Below, one piece after another: positions 5,970 through 27,243 of a stretch of DNA of 64,000 bases. The notes beneath the pieces were generated by a model that made no database searches, was not told the origin of the DNA, and saw nothing but the letters and a program-made list of their open reading frames with translations. Made by a program: the position numbers and the translations under genes. Every line of letters begins with the position of its first letter. Position 1 is the first letter of the stretch. The stretch comes from Turneriella sp. (lineage in GTDB: Bacteria; Spirochaetota; Leptospiria; Turneriellales; Turneriellaceae): assembly GCA_965279515.1 (NCBI GenBank), contig CBDIID010000003.1, forward strand, positions 2,784,001-2,848,000, read 5' to 3'.

Positions 5970-6650
5970 CTATTCAGGAATCCGAATACTAAAATCGTCA
6001 AACGCAAAAGAGATTGGAGTGCCTGGCGTGGCGGCAAAACCATAGACACCTGAATAGCCCGTCACATAAGTTGAATCCAGAACAGTTAATGAATCCGATA
6101 CGGCACCGGCTAACTCGCAGCTTAGCTGGTTATATTCCAGTTTAAAGGTTATTAAATATTGATTTCCTACAATAACGGTAATCGGCGATGAAGAAACGGA
6201 CAAATCCGATCGAAGACCTGCACTGTTTTTGAAAATCGTAAGCCTTTTGGGATTTGTAGTCCCGTCAATTCCGCAGAAATATCCATCAGATGGCGCAGAC
6301 TTTAACTTTGATCTCGCAACCAGCATAAGCGAATGGTTCTGCGCGGGAAGAGTGGTTAAGGCCGTAAGCCGAGTGGCATGAAACGATTTCCTTTGATCTA
6401 CTTTGCGTGAACAAGCTACAAAAGTATAGTTTCCCCCGGAAAAATTAACTACAGCATTTTGGTTTATGATTGATGCTTGAAAATAATTAACCCCCGAAAC
6501 CTGCCAATTTTCACCCAAACTTGAAGAATCGCTCCTGTTGAAATCATCATTGCAGAATTCAGGATTGGATTCCCTTTCCATGTTTAATTGCGTACAGCAC
6601 GTAAGAAGCACCAAAATAATTGACCCATAACGCAGTCGAAATCGCAGCAT
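5970..6650 (-). CDS. hypothetical lipoprotein (beta-rich), paralog of 6652-7347
   Basis: Signal peptide ending LLTCC. CNDDFNRSDSSSLGENW motif, C-terminal FDDFS. Lower GC than flanks. Confidence 0.7.
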   Translation of the reverse strand: MLRFRLRYGSIILVLLTCCTQLNMERESNPEFCNDDFNRSDSSSLGENWQVSGVNYFQASIINQNAVVNFSGGNYTFVACSRKVDQRKSFHATRLTALTTLPAQNHSLMLVARSKLKSAPSDGYFCGIDGTTNPKRLTIFKNSAGLRSDLSVSSSPITVIVGNQYLITFKLEYNQLSCELAGAVSDSLTVLDSTYVTGYSGVYGFAATPGTPISFAFDDFSIRIPE

Positions 6651-6651
6651 A

Positions 6652-7347
6652 TTATTGTGCTACCTCCGACTTAAAACTATCAAAGAGTACCGTAATCGGC
6701 CCGCCTGTCCCTTCGCCGAAGAATCCCACTTGGCCGACCTGAAGGGCGCTATCCGTGGTCCGTAAAGCAACCTGACTCGAGCCGATATTTACGCTACACA
6801 AAAGCGATGCCCCATCCATCGCGAAAATAATAGATGCTGTTGTTCCTGCAGGAATACTGGAGATTGAATTATCTACCGCTAACTGTATAACGTTTCCTTG
6901 ACTAACATTAAACAGAGCAATTTTATTTTGATAGAAGCCACATAAATAAAGGTCTGTGATCAAATTCTTCACGCGCGCCACCAAGGCGAATTTGTGGTTT
7001 GCCAAAGCTGTCATTTGAGGCTGAATTCTAAGCGATATTTTAGATTTGGTATGCTCTATGCGATTCTTACAAGCGAGGACAATATACCTAAGCGTCAGAT
7101 CAAGTTTCCCCATTTGGTTGCTGATGCTAACTGTCGGTGGCGCCGAGTAGGGAAATAAGCCTGTAGCCTCCCATTTATCTCCAAGGTCCGAAGAATCTGG
7201 TCGATTAAACTCATCAGAGCATAAATCGTTATTAGAGGCTTCAAGTAAGTCTACTTGCGCGCAGTTTATGAACACTCCCAAGAGGACAAAAAGGGAAAAA
7301 ATAGATCCCGAAACAAAGCGATTAACCGACACCCCCTTAAAAACCAT
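6652..7347 (-). CDS. hypothetical lipoprotein (beta-rich), paralog of 5970-6650
   Basis: Lipobox-like FINC. CSDEFNRPDSSDLGDKW motif, C-terminal FDSFK. Confidence 0.7.
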   Translation of the reverse strand: MVFKGVSVNRFVSGSIFSLFVLLGVFINCAQVDLLEASNNDLCSDEFNRPDSSDLGDKWEATGLFPYSAPPTVSISNQMGKLDLTLRYIVLACKNRIEHTKSKISLRIQPQMTALANHKFALVARVKNLITDLYLCGFYQNKIALFNVSQGNVIQLAVDNSISSIPAGTTASIIFAMDGASLLCSVNIGSSQVALRTTDSALQVGQVGFFGEGTGGPITVLFDSFKSEVAQ

Positions 7348-8359
7348 AACCCATACCCATTAAAACTTGCAGGGTGTTTAAATCTGCGCCCTGGAATAGG
7401 ATATGTGAGTAACTTCCCATCACTGATAGCGAAAGAGTTCGCCAGAGAATATAACGTAACTCCAGATTTGCGCGCAGTTCAATGTCCCGCGATTGCAATA
7501 TGGCATTGTCAAAATCCCGCTGCAGCTCGGAAATTGCAGCACCCACGAGTGCCGAGAAATGGATGGTAAACGTTCGAAAAGCTGAATAGCCGAAATCCAC
7601 GCCACCCAATATAGAAACGGGTTGAATACGTAAGCCAGGAAAGATACCTGCTTTATTCTGGTATTTAACGTAAGAGCCTGCAATTACAGGTGAAAAATGG
7701 AATCTACCCGACTGAAATGCCGAATAACCAATCTGACCATAAATTCCGAATGCGCCTTTGTAAATTTCGCTGAATTGTCCCTGCAGTGGCGCCGAGTAGA
7801 ATCCGTAGACACCAACGTGAAGTTCGTTTGTTTTTTGATAGCGAATAATTTCTTCGCGTGGGAGCGGAGGTAAGGCTGTTTTCATTTTCATACTCATCTT
7901 ATTGGAAAGCATATTAATGCCCTCAAATAATTTCAGGCTGGTTACCTGCATGACAATATTTTCCGTCACTTTTACCCGTTGGGATTGAACGTCGATAGCT
8001 TGAGCCTGAACCTGGGCAACTCCCTGGATCGTCAGAAAATTACCAATCAGCACAATATCAGCCTCAGCTTTCTTTCCCAAACCAACTGCCGTTTCAATTT
8101 CGTATAACTTAGCGGCCGAAATTTGCAGATCTTGAGCGAGTTTGCGACCTTTTTGTGGATCAAGGATATCAAAGGAGCCCGTTTCCTCCAAAGGTTTTAC
8201 AAAGGAATCGGGAATTGTTGGTGTTAGGAAATCACTCGCCACATCTTTTTTCTGGTTAACGAAATCCAGAATCAACACACGGCGCTTAATCATTTCCTTA
8301 GCACCGATAGTGGAAGAATACACCAGGAACAAAAGGAAGAATAAGCAATAATTTTTCAC
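7337..8359 (-). CDS. putative outer-membrane protein: TolB/FlgO/CsgG-like N-domain plus beta-barrel C-domain
   Basis: RVLILDFVN...LGKKAEADIVLIG N-domain. Alternating beta-strand pattern in the C-half, ending MGMGYGF. Start codon uncertain. Confidence 0.6.
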   Translation of the reverse strand: MKNYCLFFLLFLVYSSTIGAKEMIKRRVLILDFVNQKKDVASDFLTPTIPDSFVKPLEETGSFDILDPQKGRKLAQDLQISAAKLYEIETAVGLGKKAEADIVLIGNFLTIQGVAQVQAQAIDVQSQRVKVTENIVMQVTSLKLFEGINMLSNKMSMKMKTALPPLPREEIIRYQKTNELHVGVYGFYSAPLQGQFSEIYKGAFGIYGQIGYSAFQSGRFHFSPVIAGSYVKYQNKAGIFPGLRIQPVSILGGVDFGYSAFRTFTIHFSALVGAAISELQRDFDNAILQSRDIELRANLELRYILWRTLSLSVMGSYSHILFQGADLNTLQVLMGMGYGF

Positions 8360-9675: not shown

Positions 9676-11029
9676 GACTCTGCTTAAGAGCCGGCGGGCC
9701 GTCATTGGCAATGAAGTCAAACCCGCGGCGGTCATGATCGACGGCGAAATGATTACCGATATTCTCCCCTATGACGCGGCTTTAGGGTCGACGGGTATCC
9801 ATATCATCGACTACGGCGACCTCGCTCTCATGCCCGGCGTCGTCGACACGCACGTGCACATCAACCAACCGGGCCGCACCGAGTGGGAGGGCTTTCAGAC
9901 GGCCACCGCCGCCGCCGCAAAAGGCGGCATCACTACCCTCGTCGACATGCCGCTCAACTGCGACCCGGTCACCACAACGCGTGCGGCGCTCGAGGCAAAA
10001 CTCAAATCGTGTGCGGGACTCTTGCATGTCGATTGCGGTTTTTATGGCGGCGTGATTCCCGGCAACCTGAACGACCTCGAACCGCTGATCGATGCCGGCG
10101 TGCTCGGCTTCAAGAGTTTTCTTATCCATTCGGGCATCCACGAGTTTCCGCACTGCGGCGAAGCCGAACTGCGCGCGGCGATCCCGATTCTCAAAAAAGG
10201 CGGAGTCCCCTACCTCATGCATGCGGAGTTGGAGTCCCCCTCCGCCTCCGGCGCCTCCCCCGTAAACGGGGGAGGCCGGATGGGGGACAATCGTTCGTAT
10301 GCTACCTACCTAGCCTCGCGCCCGCGCCGCTGGGAAAATGATGCCATCGAACTTATGGCCCGCCTCGCGGATGAGACCAACGCGCACCTGCATGTCGTGC
10401 ATCTGTCGTCGTCGGATGCCCTCACGACGCTGGAAGGTGCGCGCAAAAAAAATATCCCGCTGAGCGTCGAGACCTGCCATCATTACCTGACGTATTGCTC
10501 CGAAGAGATTCCTGACGGCCGTACCGAATTCAAATGCGCGCCGCCGATACGCGAAAGAGAGAACCGCGAAAAACTCTGGGCGGCGCTGAAAAACGGCACG
10601 ATTGATTTTGCCGTGTCAGACCATTCGCCGTGCACGCCTGAACTCAAGGCCGCCGAATCGGGCGATTTTATGAAAGCGTGGGGCGGCATCGCCGGATTGC
10701 AATTCAGCCTCTCTGTCTTCCACACGGGGGCATCCGCCCGTGGTCTTTCGCTGGCGCAGATCAGTCATTTTCTCTCGGCGGCGCCGGCGAAATTTGTCGG
10801 CCTGAAGAACAAGGGCGCCATCGCGCCAGGCATGGACGCCGATCTCATTGTTTTCGATTCAGGAAAAAAATTCCGCGTCGAGCGCAGCGACATAGAACAC
10901 CGCCACGATGTTTCACCCTATATCGGTATGGAGCTTTTAGGGCAGGTCAAAGAAACCTGGCTGCGCGGCGTCTGTGTACATAAAGAGGGAAAATCCGTCG
11001 GCCCGGCGGGCAGGCCAATCTTACGCTAA
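9668..11029 (+). CDS. allB: allantoinase
   Basis: PGVVDTHVHINQPGRTEWEGF, FKCAPPIR, SDHSPC and AWGGIAGLQ. Overlaps the puuD stop. Confidence 0.95.
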   Translation: MSKTLLKSRRAVIGNEVKPAAVMIDGEMITDILPYDAALGSTGIHIIDYGDLALMPGVVDTHVHINQPGRTEWEGFQTATAAAAKGGITTLVDMPLNCDPVTTTRAALEAKLKSCAGLLHVDCGFYGGVIPGNLNDLEPLIDAGVLGFKSFLIHSGIHEFPHCGEAELRAAIPILKKGGVPYLMHAELESPSASGASPVNGGGRMGDNRSYATYLASRPRRWENDAIELMARLADETNAHLHVVHLSSSDALTTLEGARKKNIPLSVETCHHYLTYCSEEIPDGRTEFKCAPPIRERENREKLWAALKNGTIDFAVSDHSPCTPELKAAESGDFMKAWGGIAGLQFSLSVFHTGASARGLSLAQISHFLSAAPAKFVGLKNKGAIAPGMDADLIVFDSGKKFRVERSDIEHRHDVSPYIGMELLGQVKETWLRGVCVHKEGKSVGPAGRPILR

Positions 11030-19265: not shown

Positions 19266-19670
19266 TTACAGGCCGGCGATGCCGGCTTTGGCGACCTGGG
19301 TATCTTGCGTCGAAAGCGCGCCAGAGACGCCGATCGCGCCAACGATCTTATCGCCTTTGACAATGATCTCTCCGCCTTCGACGGGAATCACATTCGGCAT
19401 GCCAAGAATCTTGAGACCCGCGCCGCCCTTTTCGACAGTCTCTTCAAAAGCCTTCGTGGCACGCTTGAATTTTATCGAGGTCAGTGCCTTGGCCTGGCAG
19501 ATTTCAATCGAACCCAGCTGCGTGTTATCCATCTTTTCGAGCAGCACGAGATTCGCGCCCGAATCGACGATGGCAATCGCCATGTTCCAGCCGTTTTTCC
19601 CGGCCTCTGCCTGCGCAGCCGCGACAATTTTTTTCGCATCGGCAAGTGCGATGGGTTCACCGTAAGTCAT
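19266..19670 (-). CDS. GlcG/HbpS family heme-binding protein
   Basis: AIAIVDSGANL, KALTS and GAIGVSG. Start ATG 19670. Confidence 0.88.
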   Translation of the reverse strand: MTYGEPIALADAKKIVAAAQAEAGKNGWNMAIAIVDSGANLVLLEKMDNTQLGSIEICQAKALTSIKFKRATKAFEETVEKGGAGLKILGMPNVIPVEGGEIIVKGDKIVGAIGVSGALSTQDTQVAKAGIAGL

Positions 19671-19716
19671 GGGTAAATAAAGATTGCCGCGCACAGGCTG
19701 GCAATCGCAATAAGCA

Positions 19717-20436
19717 ATGTTATCACCTTTCTGGGGCGAATTTCTGGGCACGATGGTGCTCATCATCTTAGGCAGCGGCGTTGTCGCGGGCGTGCTGCTT
19801 GAAAAATCGAAGGCGCAAAACGCCGGGTGGATTGTCATCACGGCGGGCTGGGCCTTTGCCGTCACGCTGGGGATTTTCACCGCGAAGACTTTCGGCAGTC
19901 CCGATGCGCACCTAAACCCGGCCGTAACGCTGGCCTTCGCGATCAAATCGGGCTCGTATGAAAACGTGCCCGTCTTCTTCGCCGCCCAGTTCGCGGGCGC
20001 TTTTGCGGGAGCTGTCATCACCTGGCTGCACTATTTACCGCACTGGGGCGAAACAAAAAACCCCGCACTAAAACTCGCGGTCTTCTCAACCGACCCGGCC
20101 ATTCGCCATCCGGTGCACAACATGGTGAGCGAGATCATCGGCACATTGGTTCTCATCATCGGCGTCTACGTCATCTTCTCACGCGGCTCCGGCGGCATCA
20201 GCGCAGGCATGGGCCCGTTTCTCGTCGGCATACTCGTCTGGGCAATCGGCCTCTCGATGGGCGGCACGACCGGCTACGCGATCAACCCCGCCCGCGACCT
20301 CGGCCCACGCCTCGCGCATGCACTGCTGCCGATTGCTGGCAAGGGCTCATCGGACTGGCGCTATGCTTGGGTGCCAGTGGTCGCACCGCTGATTGGAGGG
20401 GGGATTGCGGGGGTGGTGTTGCGGTTGGTTTCGTAG
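19717..20436 (+). CDS. glpF: MIP family aquaglyceroporin
   Basis: HLNPAVT and GGTTGYAINPARDLGPR. Confidence 0.92.
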   Translation: MLSPFWGEFLGTMVLIILGSGVVAGVLLEKSKAQNAGWIVITAGWAFAVTLGIFTAKTFGSPDAHLNPAVTLAFAIKSGSYENVPVFFAAQFAGAFAGAVITWLHYLPHWGETKNPALKLAVFSTDPAIRHPVHNMVSEIIGTLVLIIGVYVIFSRGSGGISAGMGPFLVGILVWAIGLSMGGTTGYAINPARDLGPRLAHALLPIAGKGSSDWRYAWVPVVAPLIGGGIAGVVLRLVS

Positions 20437-20470
20437 AATAGGTGGAGTGTGACATGGGCAAAGAGTAATT

Positions 20471-21259
20471 ATGTACGCAAAATATTTTATCGCATTATTG
20501 ATTATCTTCTTAGGAAATTGCCGAGACCCCAAAGGCCAGATTGTTGAAGATTACTTAGATTCTACTCTGACGAGAGAAAGTACGATCAGAATGCAAGAGG
20601 TTTTTGTCGAAAAATTGCCACCGCAAATGCCGCGCTCAGTCAAGTTAAAACTCGGTGCCTTTGCACGCCGGATATGGGACTTTGAAACATACGCTGATAC
20701 ATTAAAGCAAACCTCGATACCGCCGGAAGTCATAGCCGGCATGAAGTCGACTATAGATTTCAGTAAGACAGAAGCTGGCAGGTCGTACAAAAAATCCCTT
20801 AAGAATTATTTTGACAATGAGCGGCAGCTTTTAGGCCAGAAGAGAATCTCCGATTTCCCCGCCGCTCGAATCGACTTTTTTACGCAGCGCTTTTTTGCCA
20901 ATAACGAGCCTGAAAACGGGGAACGGGTAAACCGCGACTTCAACTATCGTATGATGAAAATCTTTTGGATATTGAGCCATCCAAATAAACCCATTGACGA
21001 GGCAGAAATCAAGGCAAAGTCTCAGATTATCATAAACGCTGAGCGTAACAAAATGCAGAAATCAATTATTCAGGGCAAAGTCCCAGATTCTATGCTTCTT
21101 CGCAGCTTGGTACAGACTATGCTCTTAACCGAGCAAGAATTTGAGGCGTACAAATCCTACCTTAATGCAACAGAGGCCATTTCTCTGAAAAAGTTCATTT
21201 TTGACTTTGACCATACTCAGTCGCAAATCCGCATGGACAAATACATACAATCACTATAA
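20471..21259 (+). CDS. cassette 1: hypothetical lipoprotein
   Basis: Lipobox FLGNC. Flanked by inverted GTGTGACATGGGCAA (20447-20461) and TTGCCCACGTCACAC (21261-21275). Confidence 0.75.
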   Translation: MYAKYFIALLIIFLGNCRDPKGQIVEDYLDSTLTRESTIRMQEVFVEKLPPQMPRSVKLKLGAFARRIWDFETYADTLKQTSIPPEVIAGMKSTIDFSKTEAGRSYKKSLKNYFDNERQLLGQKRISDFPAARIDFFTQRFFANNEPENGERVNRDFNYRMMKIFWILSHPNKPIDEAEIKAKSQIIINAERNKMQKSIIQGKVPDSMLLRSLVQTMLLTEQEFEAYKSYLNATEAISLKKFIFDFDHTQSQIRMDKYIQSL

Positions 21260-21271
21260 GTTGCCCACGTC

Positions 21272-21455
21272 ACACAACAAATTTTACGCGCTGCGCCGCT
21301 GCGGTGCAGTAGCTCCCCGCGTGCTCCCTAAGGGGAGATTCGCTTCGCGCGTCGCCGCGAGCCGCTACGACCACATTTTTTGACGCAAATCGGCTTTACA
21401 AAGTGAATAATGACACAAGCATCAAAAAACGTCATCGTAAAATCCAACGTTAGCT
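21272..21455 (+). repeat. attC-like site 1 (184 bp)
   Basis: R'' ACACAAC at 21272 and L'' ATTTTACG at the left end. L' CGTAAAAT at 21436-21443 and R' GTTAGCT at 21449. Confidence 0.75.
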
Positions 21456-21468
21456 GCCATGGTGCATT

Positions 21469-22389
21469 ATGTCAGACCACTTAAATAAACTAATTAACTC
21501 AGTTCACTTTCAATCGATCCTTAAAGAGCAGAGTGTTTTTAACGTAGTTAAACAGCATTTACCAGACACTCAAATGGGGACTTTTTATGTAGACCCTGAT
21601 ACGAGTAAGTACAGAGAAATTGATGTATTGGCTTTAAAGGAGAGCACAATAAATCAAAAATCTGAAGAAATTAGAGTAAGAACTATTATACCAATCGAGT
21701 GCAAGACGTTGAAAAATTTTAGTGTCTTTTTGTATAATGAGCAGCCTAAAGAAAAATCCAGGCCAAATACGGTTTGGCCTCTTGAAATTCTTCAAACAAC
21801 AATTTTTCAGAAGATTCACCGTGAATCACTGAGTCTAAAAGTCCAAAAACGGTTTGAGCTTGAGCATTCAAATACACGCCCGAAACTAACAGATCAGATA
21901 GATTTGGCCGCCAGTTTCGCTGAACCTGTCTTTCCTACTTATGCGAGTTTTAGGGAGATGAACCCAGCAAATGTGCGACGCAAGGATGATGATGGGAGCG
22001 TCGTTTGGGAAGCTAGCCAAAGTCTTCGGGCCTGCCAGATGTACTTCGTAAATGAGGTTATCAAGACCGCCGTTGAGGATTCGATTGAACAAATGGCAGG
22101 CTTTATTGATGAAGTTGACAAAGCTAGAGATGCAACTTATACACGCATACCGCTAATAAGACTTGATGCCATTAAAGCATTGCATAATAGATTTTACTCA
22201 ATTCATCCCATATTGGTGGTAGACGCTCAGCTTTTTACAATTGATGAGAATGAAAACCCTAAGGAGATTTCCGCAGGCAATTTGGCATTTTACGGCGTTG
22301 GCGGCTTCGCAAATTTTCAAATGACAGTCATGCGGTATTCGACCTTTCAAGAGTCAATCGCTGCTTTGATAAAAGGCATCTTGATCTGA
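21469..22389 (+). CDS. cassette 2: PD-(D/E)XK restriction-endonuclease-like protein
   Basis: YVDPDTSKYREIDVLA...IECKT motif. AT-rich. Confidence 0.7.
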   Translation: MSDHLNKLINSVHFQSILKEQSVFNVVKQHLPDTQMGTFYVDPDTSKYREIDVLALKESTINQKSEEIRVRTIIPIECKTLKNFSVFLYNEQPKEKSRPNTVWPLEILQTTIFQKIHRESLSLKVQKRFELEHSNTRPKLTDQIDLAASFAEPVFPTYASFREMNPANVRRKDDDGSVVWEASQSLRACQMYFVNEVIKTAVEDSIEQMAGFIDEVDKARDATYTRIPLIRLDAIKALHNRFYSIHPILVVDAQLFTIDENENPKEISAGNLAFYGVGGFANFQMTVMRYSTFQESIAALIKGILI

Positions 22390-22401
22390 ATGCCCCACGG
22401 C

Positions 22402-22698
22402 AGCTAACAAATTTTACGCGCTGCGCGCTGCGGTGCCGTAGTTCCTCTGAAAACAGAGACCCGAGGACAGGTCGCGTGTGCTCCCTCAGGGGAGATTCGC
22501 TTCGCTCATCGCGGGTCTTCGCAGCAAAGATCGCGGACGACGCGCACACCGGGAGGTGTGTTTTCGCGCGGCGCTGCGTGACCTTTTAGGTCTTCGTCTT
22601 CGGTGCCGCTAGACCACATCTTTTGACGCGAATCGGCTTTACAAATTGATTAAATGGCACAGGCGTCAAAAAACGTCGGCGTTAGATCCAAGTTGTGT
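22402..22698 (+). repeat. attC-like site 2 (297 bp)
   Basis: R'' AGCTAAC is followed by the same AAATTTTACGCGCTGCG as site 1. Ends AAAACGTCGGCGTTAGATCCAAGTTGTGT. Confidence 0.75.
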
Positions 22699-22708
22699 TA
22701 CCTTTACT

Positions 22709-23497
22709 ATGAAACCATTCTCAAAGCGCTATTTTCTACTTATAATACTTGGCCTAAATTCGATTACGTGTAATAATCATAAAATTGCAACGAAAGATAT
22801 ACTTATTGTCGAAATCACTGATGCCGATCTCGGCCTGAAAATAACTGCTGAGCCGGAGTATCGGAGAATGATCCCCTTGTTCCGCACATCTCTGACGAAG
22901 TTTCTAACGGATTTAGGACCGTTAGCTCGATATGTTCTAATTCATATGACCCTTAGTTCGCACGAAAAAAATGACATCGATCATAACTTGCGCGACGCCA
23001 TACAGAAGCTGCCCCGTAAGACTCTAATTTATGGCAACTTACTTAAACGAAAGATGACGCATAAGTTTTTTTCCTCCGCAGTCGCCGAAATGGGTCACGT
23101 TGAATTTGCCGAAGCAGACGAAATGACATGGTTATTCTATCCGAGTATTTGTGACCGTGATAATGTAAACTCTGACAATGAGCCCGGCGATTGCCCTGAA
23201 AACAAAATCCGCAGAGATATTGCTTTGATCGCCGCTGAGGGGTATGCAGGTAAAAAAATTACGACAAAACTTGCTGATTCTATTGCCTACGAAAAATGGA
23301 GATTAAAAGGGTTATCGCGAATTACCTATACGAAAGCAACGCAATCGCCCGAGCTCTTGAAGGACAAGCTCATCATAATAATCAATCAACCGACACCTGA
23401 CAGCGATATGCACGATCTAATGGGGGATTCAAAAATATCCGGTTCAGAAATTCTTGGGAATCGAGTTTTGTTTTACAATGAATTAGCTGCCCCGTAG
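22709..23497 (+). CDS. cassette 3: lipoprotein with CHASE2-like extracellular domain
   Basis: Signal ending SITC. DILIVEITD...LKDKLIII...DMH...ISGSEI resembles the CHASE2 start and end motifs. Confidence 0.6.
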   Translation: MKPFSKRYFLLIILGLNSITCNNHKIATKDILIVEITDADLGLKITAEPEYRRMIPLFRTSLTKFLTDLGPLARYVLIHMTLSSHEKNDIDHNLRDAIQKLPRKTLIYGNLLKRKMTHKFFSSAVAEMGHVEFAEADEMTWLFYPSICDRDNVNSDNEPGDCPENKIRRDIALIAAEGYAGKKITTKLADSIAYEKWRLKGLSRITYTKATQSPELLKDKLIIIINQPTPDSDMHDLMGDSKISGSEILGNRVLFYNELAAP

Positions 23498-23505
23498 CAA
23501 ACGGC

Positions 23506-23818
23506 GCACATCGAGGTTTGCGGGGCTACGCTCGCTGGGGCGCCATAGCTTGAAACCGCAAGGGCGATGGCGCGGGCTTCCTAAAGGGAGATTCGCTTCG
23601 CTCATCGCGGGGTCTCCGCGGCAAAGATCGCGGATGACGCGCACACCGGGAGGTGTGTTTTTGCGCGGCGCTCGTGACCTTTTAGGTCACTGAAGACAGA
23701 GGCGAAGACGCCACCGTCTTCGGTGCTACGAGGGCACATTTTGTGTCGCGAATCGGCTTTACAGATTGATTAATTGGGGCAGGCGTCAACAAACGTCAGC
23801 GGAAAATCCACGTTGAGC
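23506..23818 (+). repeat. attC-like site 3 (313 bp)
   Basis: 23586-23688 is nearly identical to 22490-22592. Ends AAACGTCAGCGGAAAATCCACGTTGAGC. R'' is degenerate (GCACATC). Confidence 0.7.
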
Positions 23819-23836
23819 TCTATCGCCAGGAGACGA

Positions 23837-24361
23837 ATGAAAAAGAAACATTACTCCTATTCATTATTGATTCTTGTCATTTTCTTTGGAGTATCCTGCC
23901 AGCCGCGACTAAAGCTGTTTATCATTCAGAATATGACCGAAAAACCTTTAGCTATTGAACTATTTATTCATCCCTTTGAGGACATGCCAGCCAAACCGCC
24001 TGAAGATTTCCCCTTCGAAGTAACTTTCTTTAAGTCTGGCTATTTTGGAGAGCCGAGCATTGAGGAGAATGGTACGCGAATACCCTTAAAATCTTCTGCG
24101 ATTAAGTTAGATACGAAAAGGCATTCGATTATTTTTTCCCTAAAGCCCAGGGCGGGATTAGAGATTTTTAAAATGACGTTTCACCAGTTTAAGGCTTTGG
24201 ATGATAAAACTATTTCAAAGTTTCCTTTCAAATTACTTGCAATACAAACTCCAAGCAAGCAACTAGAAATTGCCATAACATCGAAAGGTTTAACTGAAAA
24301 CTTCCAGAGACCGTTTTTTTCAATCTGGGATCATGAGCGAAATGAACTAATTGTCCAATAG
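23837..24361 (+). CDS. cassette 4: hypothetical lipoprotein
   Basis: AGGAG RBS, ATG 23837, lipobox GVSC. AT-rich. Confidence 0.75.
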   Translation: MKKKHYSYSLLILVIFFGVSCQPRLKLFIIQNMTEKPLAIELFIHPFEDMPAKPPEDFPFEVTFFKSGYFGEPSIEENGTRIPLKSSAIKLDTKRHSIIFSLKPRAGLEIFKMTFHQFKALDDKTISKFPFKLLAIQTPSKQLEIAITSKGLTENFQRPFFSIWDHERNELIVQ

Positions 24362-24369
24362 GCAACGGC

Positions 24370-24615
24370 TCACAGCAAGAATTACCTGCGGTGCGGTAGC
24401 TGCCCTACAGACATAGACCCGAAGACGGGTCGCGCTTTGCGCGTCGCGGCCCTGGCAGCAGCAAGCGGTATACTTCTTTTGTGCACAACCCTCGGCGGAT
24501 ATCCGAAAGCGAGTTACAGAGAGGCGCCAGGAGTATATTAACTGCCGCAAGATCCCGCTACAGGCTAAAAAGTCGAACAAGGCGTCATTCAACGGTAAAT
24601 AAAATTCACGCCGCC
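24370..24615 (+). repeat. degenerate attC-like site 4
   Basis: Shares CTGCGGTGC and AGACCCGA.GAC.GGTCGCG with site 2. AATTACC and GGTAAAT could act as L boxes. No intact GTT end. Confidence 0.45.
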
Positions 24616-24653
24616 GGCCCTCCAACAGCAAAAATATTTCGTCTAAGTAGAGT

Positions 24654-25045
24654 ATGAGCATCTATCGAAGATACATGCTGGATGAATCCTGGGGCGATGA
24701 GCCCGAAATCAAGGCGCAGAAAAGTCTCGTCGCCGCACTCCGAAAAACACTGCTCACCCCTGCCGACGTTAAGAGCGCCCTCAAGAAGGGCATAAATCCC
24801 ATTGATTCATCCATAGAGAAATGGTCTCGCATTCAAGCGGTTTTGGCCGAAGCGAAGCGAATTGAAACATTGGCTGCTTTAGAAACCTTCATCGGCGCCA
24901 AGACCTGCGCGCTCTGTATCAGATTGTACAAAATGCCCGGCATGCACCCCAGCTCTATGCCGAAGATGAGGAGATATTTGAGCAAATAAAACAGCTGGCT
25001 CTTCAGATGGTGAATTTACTGAAATCAATTCCTCAGAATAGCTGA
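24654..25045 (+). pseudogene. frameshifted Cys-motif hypothetical protein
   Basis: TCALC is in frame. DCTKCP lies in a second frame and LYAEDEEIFEQIKQLALQMVNLLKSIPQNS* in the third. Confidence 0.5.
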
Positions 25046-25123
25046 GGGGTTATCTAAATAAAACGCCTTCACACTTAAACAGAAGATCAAAGCTTGCTCC
25101 GAAACCTTCTTTGGTTAACTAAG

Positions 25124-26158
25124 CTACGGTCGTCGCACGGGACGGAAACCGATGCTGGAGAACGCCTGATACGGGGAAATCGCGTTGATGCGGCTCGAGG
25201 TGCGTACAATGCCGGAACCGGGATCGTTCCAGCTACCGCTACGCCTGATACGAAGCGGGCCGGTTGCTGGGCCTATGCTATCCGCATCCGTGTAAGGTGA
25301 GGCGGTTGTATACGAGCCATTCCAGTCCCAAACCCATTCATAAACGTTGCCACTCATATGATAGAGGCCCAAAGCATTGGGTGCTTTGGTGTCTACCGGG
25401 TGTGTTGTTGTGGTATTGCCTGTAGTGCCATTAACGATGTTGCCGAACCAAGCTACGAAATCTGTTGCGGCAAAGTCAGAAACGTCGGCTGTTGCCCCGC
25501 TCGCATAGTTGCCCGGAGTGAATGCGGTGCCGTTAATATAACGTGCCGCATATTCCCACTCCACTTCGGTGGGCAACCGATAACCATTCGCCGACCAGTT
25601 GACGAAAGGAAAATCTATGCTGCCACTCCCCGGTGTGCCCAGAATCGAGAAGGTAGCCGACGAGGTTTTCTGCACGACCGAAAAACCAGCGTCACTGTAA
25701 TACACAGGGGTCAGTCCATCTTTTTGCGATGCCGCGTTGCACCAGAGGATGCTATCCCGCCAACTAACAGCCGTCACCGGGTGCTGGTCGGTGCGCGCTC
25801 CGTTGTCACCCGGAATGCCTGGGTTGGCGAAAGTGTACCCGTTATTCGTGGCCCAAGCCTTCACCGTTACCCAGTCGCTGTATTGCACCTCATATTTCGC
25901 GATGGCGAACGCGGTGATCGAGGGAACCGTGTGCGTCAGTTCAATACCAGTATCGTCCATAACGAAACCGGTAGTATTCGCTGGCACGCGTACCATCAGC
26001 AGGCTACAAGAGGCCATACTTATGGTGCAACTGCTTGAAATGTCGGTCGAGTCCCAGAATTTACCCCAACTCGTGCAGGAGTGGCTCATCCCTGTTGCTA
26101 TGCAAAGAAAAAACACGCCGATATAAGATATTTTTCCGGATAGCATTTCCGTAAACAT
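25124..26158 (-). CDS. FGE/SUMF1-domain lipoprotein
   Basis: HPVTAVSWRDS, GYRLPTEVEWEYAAR, NALGLYHMSGNVYEWVWD and IGFRP. Start uncertain. Confidence 0.9.
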   Translation of the reverse strand: MFTEMLSGKISYIGVFFLCIATGMSHSCTSWGKFWDSTDISSSCTISMASCSLLMVRVPANTTGFVMDDTGIELTHTVPSITAFAIAKYEVQYSDWVTVKAWATNNGYTFANPGIPGDNGARTDQHPVTAVSWRDSILWCNAASQKDGLTPVYYSDAGFSVVQKTSSATFSILGTPGSGSIDFPFVNWSANGYRLPTEVEWEYAARYINGTAFTPGNYASGATADVSDFAATDFVAWFGNIVNGTTGNTTTTHPVDTKAPNALGLYHMSGNVYEWVWDWNGSYTTASPYTDADSIGPATGPLRIRRSGSWNDPGSGIVRTSSRINAISPYQAFSSIGFRPVRRP

Positions 26159-26322
26159 ATCAGAATTTTGCCCTTTGTCGACCGGAATGATCATTCAAGA
26201 CCAATTTTTTTGCTTTATTCAGGGCGAGTCTCTGACTTCAGGGGCGCGGCATTAAAAATTTGTTTCATTTACGCCATGTACTTTTTATTAACTTTATTCG
26301 GGAAAATTGTTAAGAATCAAAA

Positions 26323-27243
26323 ATGGCTATGCTTAAAGATAAAATTCTGCAGAAAAAAAGAGGCTTGATATTTTATGGGTTAACACCTCCAAAAATAAAT
26401 ACCGAACCTCAACGCATAGTTGAAATTGCCCATAAGCAGGTTGAAAGGCTTCAAGACATCGATATAGACGGGTTGATATTGTATGATATCCAGGATGAAT
26501 CTGCACGAACGGATGCGCCGCGACCATTTCCATATATACCTACAGTTGCACCGGATAATTACAGCGAAATATACCTGAAAGAATTGAATGTTGCTAAAAT
26601 AATTTATAAAAGTGTCGGTAAATATTCAGCACAGGACTTTAAGACGTGGATAAGTGCTAAAAACCACGAAATAGAATGTGCCGTATTTGTCGGTAGCCCG
26701 TCTAAAAGTCATTTGCCGGCGTTAGCATTACATGACGCCTATAAACTCAAGCGGGAAGTAAATTCACCCATCGTGCTGGGCGGAGTTGCAATCCCGGAAC
26801 GGCATCTGATTAAGAACGATGAACATTTGAGAATGTTTAACAAGATAGATGAGGGCTGTTCTTTTTTCATTTCGCAATGCGTGTATAATATGGATAATGC
26901 TAAAAATCTTTTATCGGATTATTATTATACCGGCGTAGATACGGGTAAACCATTAGTGCCGATCATATTTACATTAACTCCATGTGGTTCACTCAAAACG
27001 CTGGAATTCATGAAATGGCTGGGCATAGATATGCCGCATTGGCTAAATAATGAATTAAAACATTCTGAGAATATTCTACAGAAGTCGCTGGATATTTGCA
27101 GGAAAATAGCTGTGGAGTTGCTGGAATTCAGCGCCGGTAAAAATATACCTGTAGGCTTTAATGTAGAAAGTGTTGCCATCAGAAAAGAAGAGATAGAAGC
27201 CTCTATACATTTGCTGAAAGATGTGAAAGAATTCATGAAATAA
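26323..27243 (+). CDS. methylenetetrahydrofolate reductase-like protein
   Basis: YGLTPPK, YDIQDES, GGVAIPERH, FFISQCVY and PCGSLKTLEFMKWLG. Low GC. Confidence 0.8.
   Translation: MAMLKDKILQKKRGLIFYGLTPPKINTEPQRIVEIAHKQVERLQDIDIDGLILYDIQDESARTDAPRPFPYIPTVAPDNYSEIYLKELNVAKIIYKSVGKYSAQDFKTWISAKNHEIECAVFVGSPSKSHLPALALHDAYKLKREVNSPIVLGGVAIPERHLIKNDEHLRMFNKIDEGCSFFISQCVYNMDNAKNLLSDYYYTGVDTGKPLVPIIFTLTPCGSLKTLEFMKWLGIDMPHWLNNELKHSENILQKSLDICRKIAVELLEFSAGKNIPVGFNVESVAIRKEEIEASIHLLKDVKEFMK

Follow-up and report, generated by a model that had tools for sequence, protein, structure and literature searches.

An insert-bearing integrase and attC sites of limited length are the marks by which integrons are defined and searched for, and PMC4889954 defines IntI itself by the profile of its insert. 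The closest described counterparts of the arrays reported here are the sedentary chromosomal integrons, among them the superintegron of Vibrio cholerae (VCR, IntIA, 2a3v), in which cassettes of one gene each, most with no known function, form large arrays of a single orientation. The likeness extends to attC repeats that are typical of the species and combine AAC/GTT cores with an inner stem and a branched, variable core, to cassettes whose start pairs with their own attC, to cassette turnover at attI and to the position of attI beside a divergent integrase gene (here in relatives). The window analyzed here is a stretch of 64,000 nucleotides from Turneriella sp. (assembly GCA_965279515.1, contig CBDIID010000003.1, positions 2,784,001 to 2,848,000), a free-living spirochete genus with cassette arrays as large as Vibrio superintegrons. 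Within it, positions 20447-24612 are most probably a four-cassette satellite array. It would belong to a genus-wide gene-capture system that resembles integrons without being classical and has a 366-aa tyrosine recombinase as its likely enzyme.

Other described systems share parts of this layout. Chromosomal cassette arrays are found in the same phylum in Treponema, called the sole spirochete clade found with integrons in the abstract of PMC3607928; the Treponema integrases reach 335-508 bits on the IntI model, versus 161 for the 366-aa protein. Small integrase-less cassette clusters away from the main integron, i.e., clusters of attC sites or single attC sites lacking integron integrases (CALINs and SALINs), as well as cassettes inserted at genomic attG sites, appear in PMC4889954 and in bioRxiv 10.1101/2022.09.11.507474. 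The attG consensus given there is only GWT, while here ca. 17 nt are common to the satellite starts and the primary attI, and the enzyme is not IntI. Archaeal integrons extend the integron layout outside the classical host range as well but, according to PMC9668308, their IntIs carry the IntI-specific additional domain, which is absent here. For Turneriella parva DSM 21527, the supplementary genome table of the IntegronFinder survey (PMC4889954) lists NA for CALIN, In0, and complete integron. A literature search, with subscription journals and bioRxiv supplements outside its reach, retrieved no publication that describes such arrays or an integron integrase lacking the insert.

An earlier note on this DNA, made from its letters alone, had reported four co-oriented AT-rich open reading frames (ORFs), each followed by a related GC-rich element. 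This description was borne out, with a GC content of 0.42-0.47 in the array compared to 0.53-0.57 in the flanks, and with the elements 3' of all ORFs belonging to one repeat family (direct-repeat families D1-D8; alignment). The complementary cassette ends it had pointed out were also recovered, stronger in cassettes 1 and 2 and weaker in 3 and 4 (the latter two counted by eye on the sequence). The features of the locus are the following.

19717..20436, + strand: MIP (aquaporin-family channel) host gene, PF00230 at 128.8 bits; the insertion site follows directly on its stop codon, TAG (20434-20436).
20437..20446, + strand: attI-like junction AATAGGTGGA, the left array boundary, with GGA where GTT is expected.
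20447..21275, + strand: cassette 1, with ORF 20471-21259 (262 aa, lipoprotein-like N-terminus, no Pfam family); start arm 20447-20461 and end arm 21261-21275 paired at 14/15.
21276..21451, + strand: site e1, 176 nt, with AAC at 21276-21278 and GTT at 21449-21451.
21452..22405, + strand: cassette 2, with ORF 21469-22389 (306 aa, no Pfam family); arms 21449-21468 and 22389-22408 complementary at 18/20, GTT/AAC cores included.
22406..22694, + strand: site e2, 289 nt from AAC to GTT, composed of the family core plus two inserted GC-rich modules.
22695..23510, + strand: cassette 3, with ORF 22709-23497 (262 aa, lipoprotein-like N-terminus); arms paired at 10/15.
23511..23814, + strand: site e3, 304 nt, with AAC decayed to ATC and GTT at 23812-23814.
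23815..24373, + strand: cassette 4, with ORF 23837-24361 (174 aa, lipoprotein-like N-terminus, no Pfam family); arms paired at 8/15.
24374..24612, + strand: site e4, 239 nt, terminal, with both ends decayed (AAC to AGC, GTT to GCC).

All four cassette genes are orphans, none reaching a Pfam cut-off; the product of cassette 3 has a weak CHASE2 match (23.2 vs 26.3 bits). The lipoprotein-like signal of the other-than-second cassettes (three of four) was judged by reading the sequence. The site lengths initially given as 184, 297, and 313 correspond to the AAC-to-GTT lengths of e1 to e3 once the 4 + 4 nt of the 7-mer boxes are added. The sites are far longer than usual, which bears out the statement that they exceed most described attC sites. 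Site e1 is a short variant, its central core partly deleted in an alignment with 20 array copies; its paired ends were found, and its predicted fold is more stable on the bottom strand (-40.6 kcal/mol) than on the top strand (-32.3). Like e1, site e2 has intact cores and paired ends; it shares 78-80% identity with copies from arrays in other parts of the genome. The 5' end of e3 has decayed and its inner-stem half no longer pairs, while the 3' half is intact. Neither e3 nor e4 was called by the left-end profile used below, leaving two called sites in the window array. Cassettes 1 and 2 still look mobilisable from their sequence; cassettes 3 and 4 and the left junction are decayed, and we read the array as a satellite assembled by the system and now partly immobilised. 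Directly after the decayed e4 lies a 111-aa ORF (24654-24989) with no Pfam match, which may represent the remains of a fifth cassette or else a host gene. Two promoter candidates were rejected: an outward promoter in each site (TTGACG-17-TTGAAT), since a sigma-70 scan of 20300-24700 gave 7 matches versus 6.6 expected and none within the sites, and a TTGACA ahead of attI, whose spacing of ca. 22-25 nt is not proper promoter spacing.

A profile of the left end of the site gave 144 matches genome-wide, 135 of them on one strand and 142 anchored on AAC. A matching right end with the complementary 9-nt inner-stem half was present in 133 of these 142, compared to 16 of 142 in a shuffled control; the two halves paired perfectly in 122 sites and with one or two mismatches in 11. 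Eighteen different inner-stem sequences occur among the 133 paired sites, and such compensated variation argues for base pairing rather than simple protein recognition of a fixed sequence. On the 3' side of the right half come a 4-nt spacer (CCAC in 93) and GTT, and the AAC-to-GTT length is mostly 207-217 nt (range, 101-365). Classical attC sites are usually well below this length, and the default upper attC size of IntegronFinder is 200 nt. In minimum-energy folds, the inner stem closed the whole site in 118/120 top strands and in 120/120 bottom strands, the bottom strand being the more stable in 107 of the 120 sites (mean, 2.4 kcal/mol).

The complete site layout consists of a 15-nt cassette-specific outer stem, AAC, an internal loop of 2 nt versus 4 nt, an inner stem of 9-10 bp, a branched GC-rich core of ca. 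170 nt, and GTT. This is the arrangement of an attC-type site (an AAC...GTT palindrome with an inner box and a variable center, in which structure is kept over sequence), with an atypical length and an atypical 15-nt outer extension. The proposal of integron-type cassettes with attC-like folded sites, AAC/GTT cores, and L-box-like inner stems is supported. The outer stem exceeds that of sedentary chromosomal integrons by 15 nt and includes an invariant C/A mismatch as a further difference. Extrahelical bases were not identified in the sites, which show the C/A at position 8 and the asymmetric internal loop instead.

Two giant co-oriented arrays, one of 75 sites at C3:169916-90840 and one of 5 + 47 at C3:3804588-3734381, account for 127 of the 142 sites; besides them, there are several small clusters and single sites. 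The genome-wide repeat search advised in the earlier note thus places the window array among the latter, as a small, partly decayed satellite. The cassettes of these arrays are delimited by their own ends. Across 126 cassettes, the first 15 nt of each, which follow the preceding GTT, pair with the 15 nt ahead of its AAC at 0.78-0.97 per position. Mean pairing over 20 positions was 15.1 with the own start, versus 7.8 with the adjacent start (133 pairs) and 7.9 at random (710 pairs), and all four core-adjacent positions matched the own start in 115/126 cassettes and the adjacent start in 17/133. Since the adjacent start pairs no better than random, the boundary of the mobile unit must lie at or within GTT, as in integron cassettes. 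Position -8 was unpaired in all 126, the end arm having C and the start arm A, a C/A mismatch of the top strand that becomes a G-T wobble on the bottom strand. From these sequences, the outer stem, made of the first and last 15 nt of one and the same cassette, can form only in the excised circle. The 126 cassette bodies (median, 712 bp) represent 110 families, of which six occur repeatedly, five of those in both arrays; neighbors in an array are mostly of other families.

Repeats that are GC-rich, strongly folding, intergenic, and present in many copies could also belong to a family of repetitive extragenic palindromes (REP) or miniature inverted-repeat transposable elements (MITE), with an incidental look of cassettes. 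We find this scarcely tenable. The signs by which the earlier note would have recognized such a family were random orientation, ends not pairing with the opposite end of the flanking gene, and a lack of cassette shuffling; what we found was the opposite in each case, with co-oriented copies concentrated in two arrays, cassette-specific flanks complementary to the opposite end of their own gene, and a cassette content that differs between relatives (see below). Moreover, arrays in relatives begin at a conserved attI beside a recombinase gene, and no Rfam family matched positions 19500-25500 of the window at E values up to 1.

The relatives (here, G000 is the source genome and other G labels are relatives) link these arrays to the 366-aa recombinase. 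Its orthologues are divergent from and adjoin an array in all five relatives whose context was examined (G011, G002, G005, G007, and G013), and a partial copy lies beside repeats in G003. In relatives, a conserved junction, (G)AATA(G/A)A(C/A)GTT, marks the start of the first cassette and is located 92-913 bp from the integrase start codon. Both giant arrays of G000 begin with the same junction, preceded by ca. 45 bp of homologous sequence but without a recombinase gene, and the 366-aa gene has no sites within ca. 9 kb on either side, which indicates that platform and enzyme have been separated in G000, unlike in sedentary chromosomal integrons, where attI and the integrase gene are linked. The motif TTCAGnnAATAGryGTT is found at the first-cassette junctions of the G000 arrays and next to the integrase gene in relatives; we list a putative attI-like target sequence of the system as follows.

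No fixed coordinates, putative attI-like target sequence of the system: TTCAGnnAATAGACGTT.

Small arrays of G000 begin right after host genes, at sites sharing ca. 17 nt with attI. The window junction behind the MIP gene is one of them and reads TAGAATAGGTGGA before the boundary and GTGTGACATGGGCAA after it. In the closest relative, G001 (MIP 90% identical), TAGAATAGGTGTT is found up to the boundary at the same place and is followed by a different cassette. MIP orthologues of 71-90% identity are present in 8/13 genus relatives, and in the seven other relatives neither motif nor cassettes follow the MIP gene. A second pair of relatives, G011 and G002, is 92.5% identical over the integrase gene, an identity that ends 9 nt past the attI junction, with no cassette in common beyond it. 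Matches to the site family are spread over ca. 205 kb in G011. Two minor observations were also made in these regions. A direct repeat, ATAGAAC-N4-ATAGAAC, common to G000, G011, and G002, lies just upstream of the integrase start codon (L068:10195-10225, with the same place in L069 and L070); it resembles the attI core ATAGAC and could be a recombinase-binding or regulatory site. In G011 (L069:10438-12300), the first cassette after attI is repeated four times in tandem with a spacing of 459 bp (left ends at 10704, 11163, 11622, and 12081), which may be a sign of recent repeated insertion.

Four genes of the source genome match PF00589, encoding XerD (348.7 bits, above its cut-off), an XerC-like protein, and proteins of 301 and 366 aa. 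All four fall outside the window, in which no tyrosine recombinase was found; the two nearest to the array are given here.

C3:2781225-2782130 of G000, + strand: 301-aa tyrosine recombinase, ca. 2 kb before the window start and 23 kb upstream of the array.
C3:2926096-2927193 of G000: 366-aa tyrosine recombinase (candidate integrase), ca. 118 kb from the window array.

The statement that the array has "no integrase" is accordingly right for the window and incomplete for the genome, which encodes a 366-aa Xer/IntI-like recombinase whose orthologues flank arrays in relatives. Similarly, the locus is CALIN-like, with four sites in 4.2 kb and no neighboring integrase, but the proposed CALIN is not the orphan of a classical integron. 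No protein of the genome exceeded the cut-off of the IntI model (the best reached 161 vs 265 bits, in two pieces that skip model positions ca. 180-239), and neither did any in the 40 relatives nor in the 46 same-class genomes sampled (0/1 + 0/45), so that looking for intI elsewhere, as had been recommended, yielded no classical gene. As a positive control, 29/301 genomes of the phylum exceed the same cut-off.

These figures bear on the explanation that the array is a classical CALIN, i.e., the remnant of an IntI-driven integron with unusually long attC sites that lost its integrase. To our knowledge, neither the position-8 mismatch nor the 15-nt outer stem is a feature of classical attC, although the rest of the layout (AAC/GTT cores, inner stem, variable core, and pairing with the own start) is that of attC. 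It also speaks for a remnant that classical IntI genes do exist in the phylum and that CALINs are common, as described in PMC4889954. We nevertheless consider it very unlikely given the lack of IntI matches above the cut-off in all the genomes just mentioned and the persistence of arrays of tens of sites across the genus, always beside the insert-less recombinase.

The candidate that goes with the arrays, the 366-aa protein, aligns with VchIntIA (2a3v) in two blocks separated by 23 residues where IntIA has 64, so the IntI-specific insert is absent. The GLR, HxxRH, LGH, and Y boxes that characterize tyrosine recombinases and presumably hold the catalytic residues are invariant across 40 members of its family. 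The source names of this family read "tyrosine-type recombinase/integrase" and refer to Turneriella sp., Leptospiraceae, and Spirochaetes. Its AlphaFold model has a mean predicted local distance difference test (pLDDT) score of 88 and a confident three-helix N-terminal unit; of an N-terminal extension of ca. 95 aa, another difference from VchIntIA, ca. 60 residues fold as helices in the model. The best fold matches were VchIntIA (2a3v), followed by XerA. In a tree of 27 recombinases, with hand-picked rows and without L039 (no ORF), the family grouped with spirochete and candidate-phyla-radiation recombinases (87/81 support), apart from Treponema-type IntI and from XerC/D.

A different host recombinase might instead act on an integron-like system, either XerC/XerD, as for the hairpins of phage CTX, or the 301-aa protein. 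Xer enzymes can use folded single strands, and Xer recombination of the folded single-stranded CTX phage DNA at dif involves an insert-less Xer enzyme, a hairpin, and one strand exchange; unlike the arrays, that case concerns a single integrating phage genome with no cassette arrays and no dedicated attI. XerD and an XerC-like protein are present here, and the 301-aa protein, also without the insert, has the IntI model as its best NCBIfam match (149 bits), is kept at 65-79% identity in 7/13 genus relatives, and shares the chromosomal neighborhood of the MIP gene. Yet in G011, G002, and G003, its gene lies 16-26 kb from the MIP gene without cassettes there, and it was not seen beside any array, while the 366-aa family adjoins arrays in 5/5 relatives. 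We regard another host enzyme as unlikely and continue with the 366-aa recombinase.

We infer from the above that the arrays are served by the 366-aa recombinase, that it uses the bottom strand, and that in G000 it acts in trans. In this scheme, the recombinase would act on a folded single strand with one strand exchange, which replication would then resolve as it does in integrons. Of the two strands, the bottom one would be the likelier substrate in view of the G-T wobble that takes the place of the invariant C/A mismatch on it. Cassettes would be inserted at a double-stranded attI-like site, TTCAGnnAATAGryGTT, and in G000 the enzyme would work at a distance, its gene adjoining no array.

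The cassette architecture is also found beyond the genus. We examined 80 distant loci around recombinase homologues of 35-47% identity from other phyla, counting as a cassette a GTT plus 15 nt that pairs with 15 nt plus AAC located 150-4000 nt downstream; one chance match was found in 6/84 shuffled loci. Between 2 and 10 such cassettes were found in nine of the 80 loci, and position 8 is C/A in all of them. The distance between the recombinase gene and the beginning of the cassettes is ca. 90-250 bp in seven loci, ca. 940 bp in L134, and ca. 1,550 bp in L104. They are co-oriented downstream of the recombinase in Desulfitobacterium, Saccharibacillus, and metagenome-assembled genomes (MAGs) of Bacillota and Spirochaetota, and divergent upstream in Peregrinibacteria, Uhrbacteria, and a gammaproteobacterial MAG. 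The Desulfitobacterium locus has twelve sites, ten of 71-75 nt and two of 124-125 nt, which indicates that length is not the defining trait and that long sites are peculiar to the genus of the window. Six of seven array-linked recombinases of other phyla pass the NCBIfam XerA-type model (214-237 bits) and none of the seven passes IntI. For Firmicutes, PMC9024848 describes integrons as nearly absent, with one complete integron and a few CALINs.

With less assurance than for the window array itself, we favor the view that these loci form a sister system to integrons across Spirochaetota, Bacillota, candidate-phyla-radiation bacteria, and a gammaproteobacterial MAG. Such a system would combine an insert-less XerA/IntI-like recombinase with folded sites, and strand choice and recognition would probably go through the long outer stem with its conserved C/A (G-T) position 8, rather than through extrahelical bases read by the IntI insert.

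Several observations weigh against assigning the arrays to a working system driven by the 366-aa recombinase. The window junction has GGA in place of GTT, and with e3 and e4 degenerate this copy may no longer recombine. An ORF of at least 50 aa is on the array strand in only 70 of the 111 cassettes that have one; cassette ORFs in classical integrons show a stronger strand bias. No excised circle or cassette-level polymorphism was detected in public sequencing runs, of which six matched and none was listed as RNA; their sequences are contig-only and broken at the repeats: contig set X4 has no cover over 21510-22262, no contig makes a clean join across a cassette (X1, X4, X5, and X6), and X5 and X6 (labelled drinking water metagenome) contribute short identical pieces only. 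Action in trans is assumed for G000, as there is no site within ca. 9 kb on either side of the 366-aa gene and neither giant array has a recombinase gene at its attI end. The protein itself is under the cut-off of every NCBIfam model (XerA-type, NF040815, 196 vs 220 bits; IntI, 161 vs 265), and the tree leaves sisterhood to IntI open, the deeper order of the clade, classical IntI, and the 301-aa family being unsettled and subject to a long-branch warning. Finally, the IntI-specific insert, absent here, was reported to be necessary for IntI activity (Messier and Roy 2001, as cited in PMC4889954 and PMC9668308).

If the proposed system is real, the IntI domain would be dispensable for integron-type capture, and standard searches would be missing very large arrays (127 sites here). 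Confirmation of the recombinase would widen the range of integron-type gene capture, including Bacillota, allow the actual need for the IntI insert to be tested in a natural setting, and make hundreds of unexplored cassette genes accessible.

Some minor features of the arrays and of the window are also worth recording. An insertion sequence with the end GGTACTATCACGACATAGGTAACAC is present in nine copies, all of them located within the two giant arrays and oriented the same way (e.g., C3 3766293, 157974, 99147, and 90770). In eight of the nine, it lies 15-16 nt past the GTT of a site (once ATT), and from this placement it appears to target the start arm of the cassettes. One copy includes a 426-aa transposase-like ORF (C3 89395-90675, - strand). 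Outside the cassette array, the window has further low-GC stretches at 6001-8000 (0.43) and 26001-27000 (0.39).

A hairpin with a stem of at least 6 bp and the conserved loop TCCNTG was found 80 times on contig C3 (e.g., 169961, 149924, and 136162). Although the arrays represent 3.1% of the contig, 57 of the 80 are in cassettes, all on the array strand and 20-40 nt from the cassette start or end. They are present in 29/41 cassettes with an opposite-strand ORF versus 7/70 with an array-strand ORF, and on the reverse strand the loop resembles a ribosome-binding site (AAGGAGG). The same loop type is found in the Desulfitobacterium array (L113:10945-20607). Lastly, a 188-bp cassette without any ORF of at least 50 aa has 11 copies over both giant arrays (e.g., C3 155724, 115564, 3773102, and 3735721) and may encode a small RNA or peptide.

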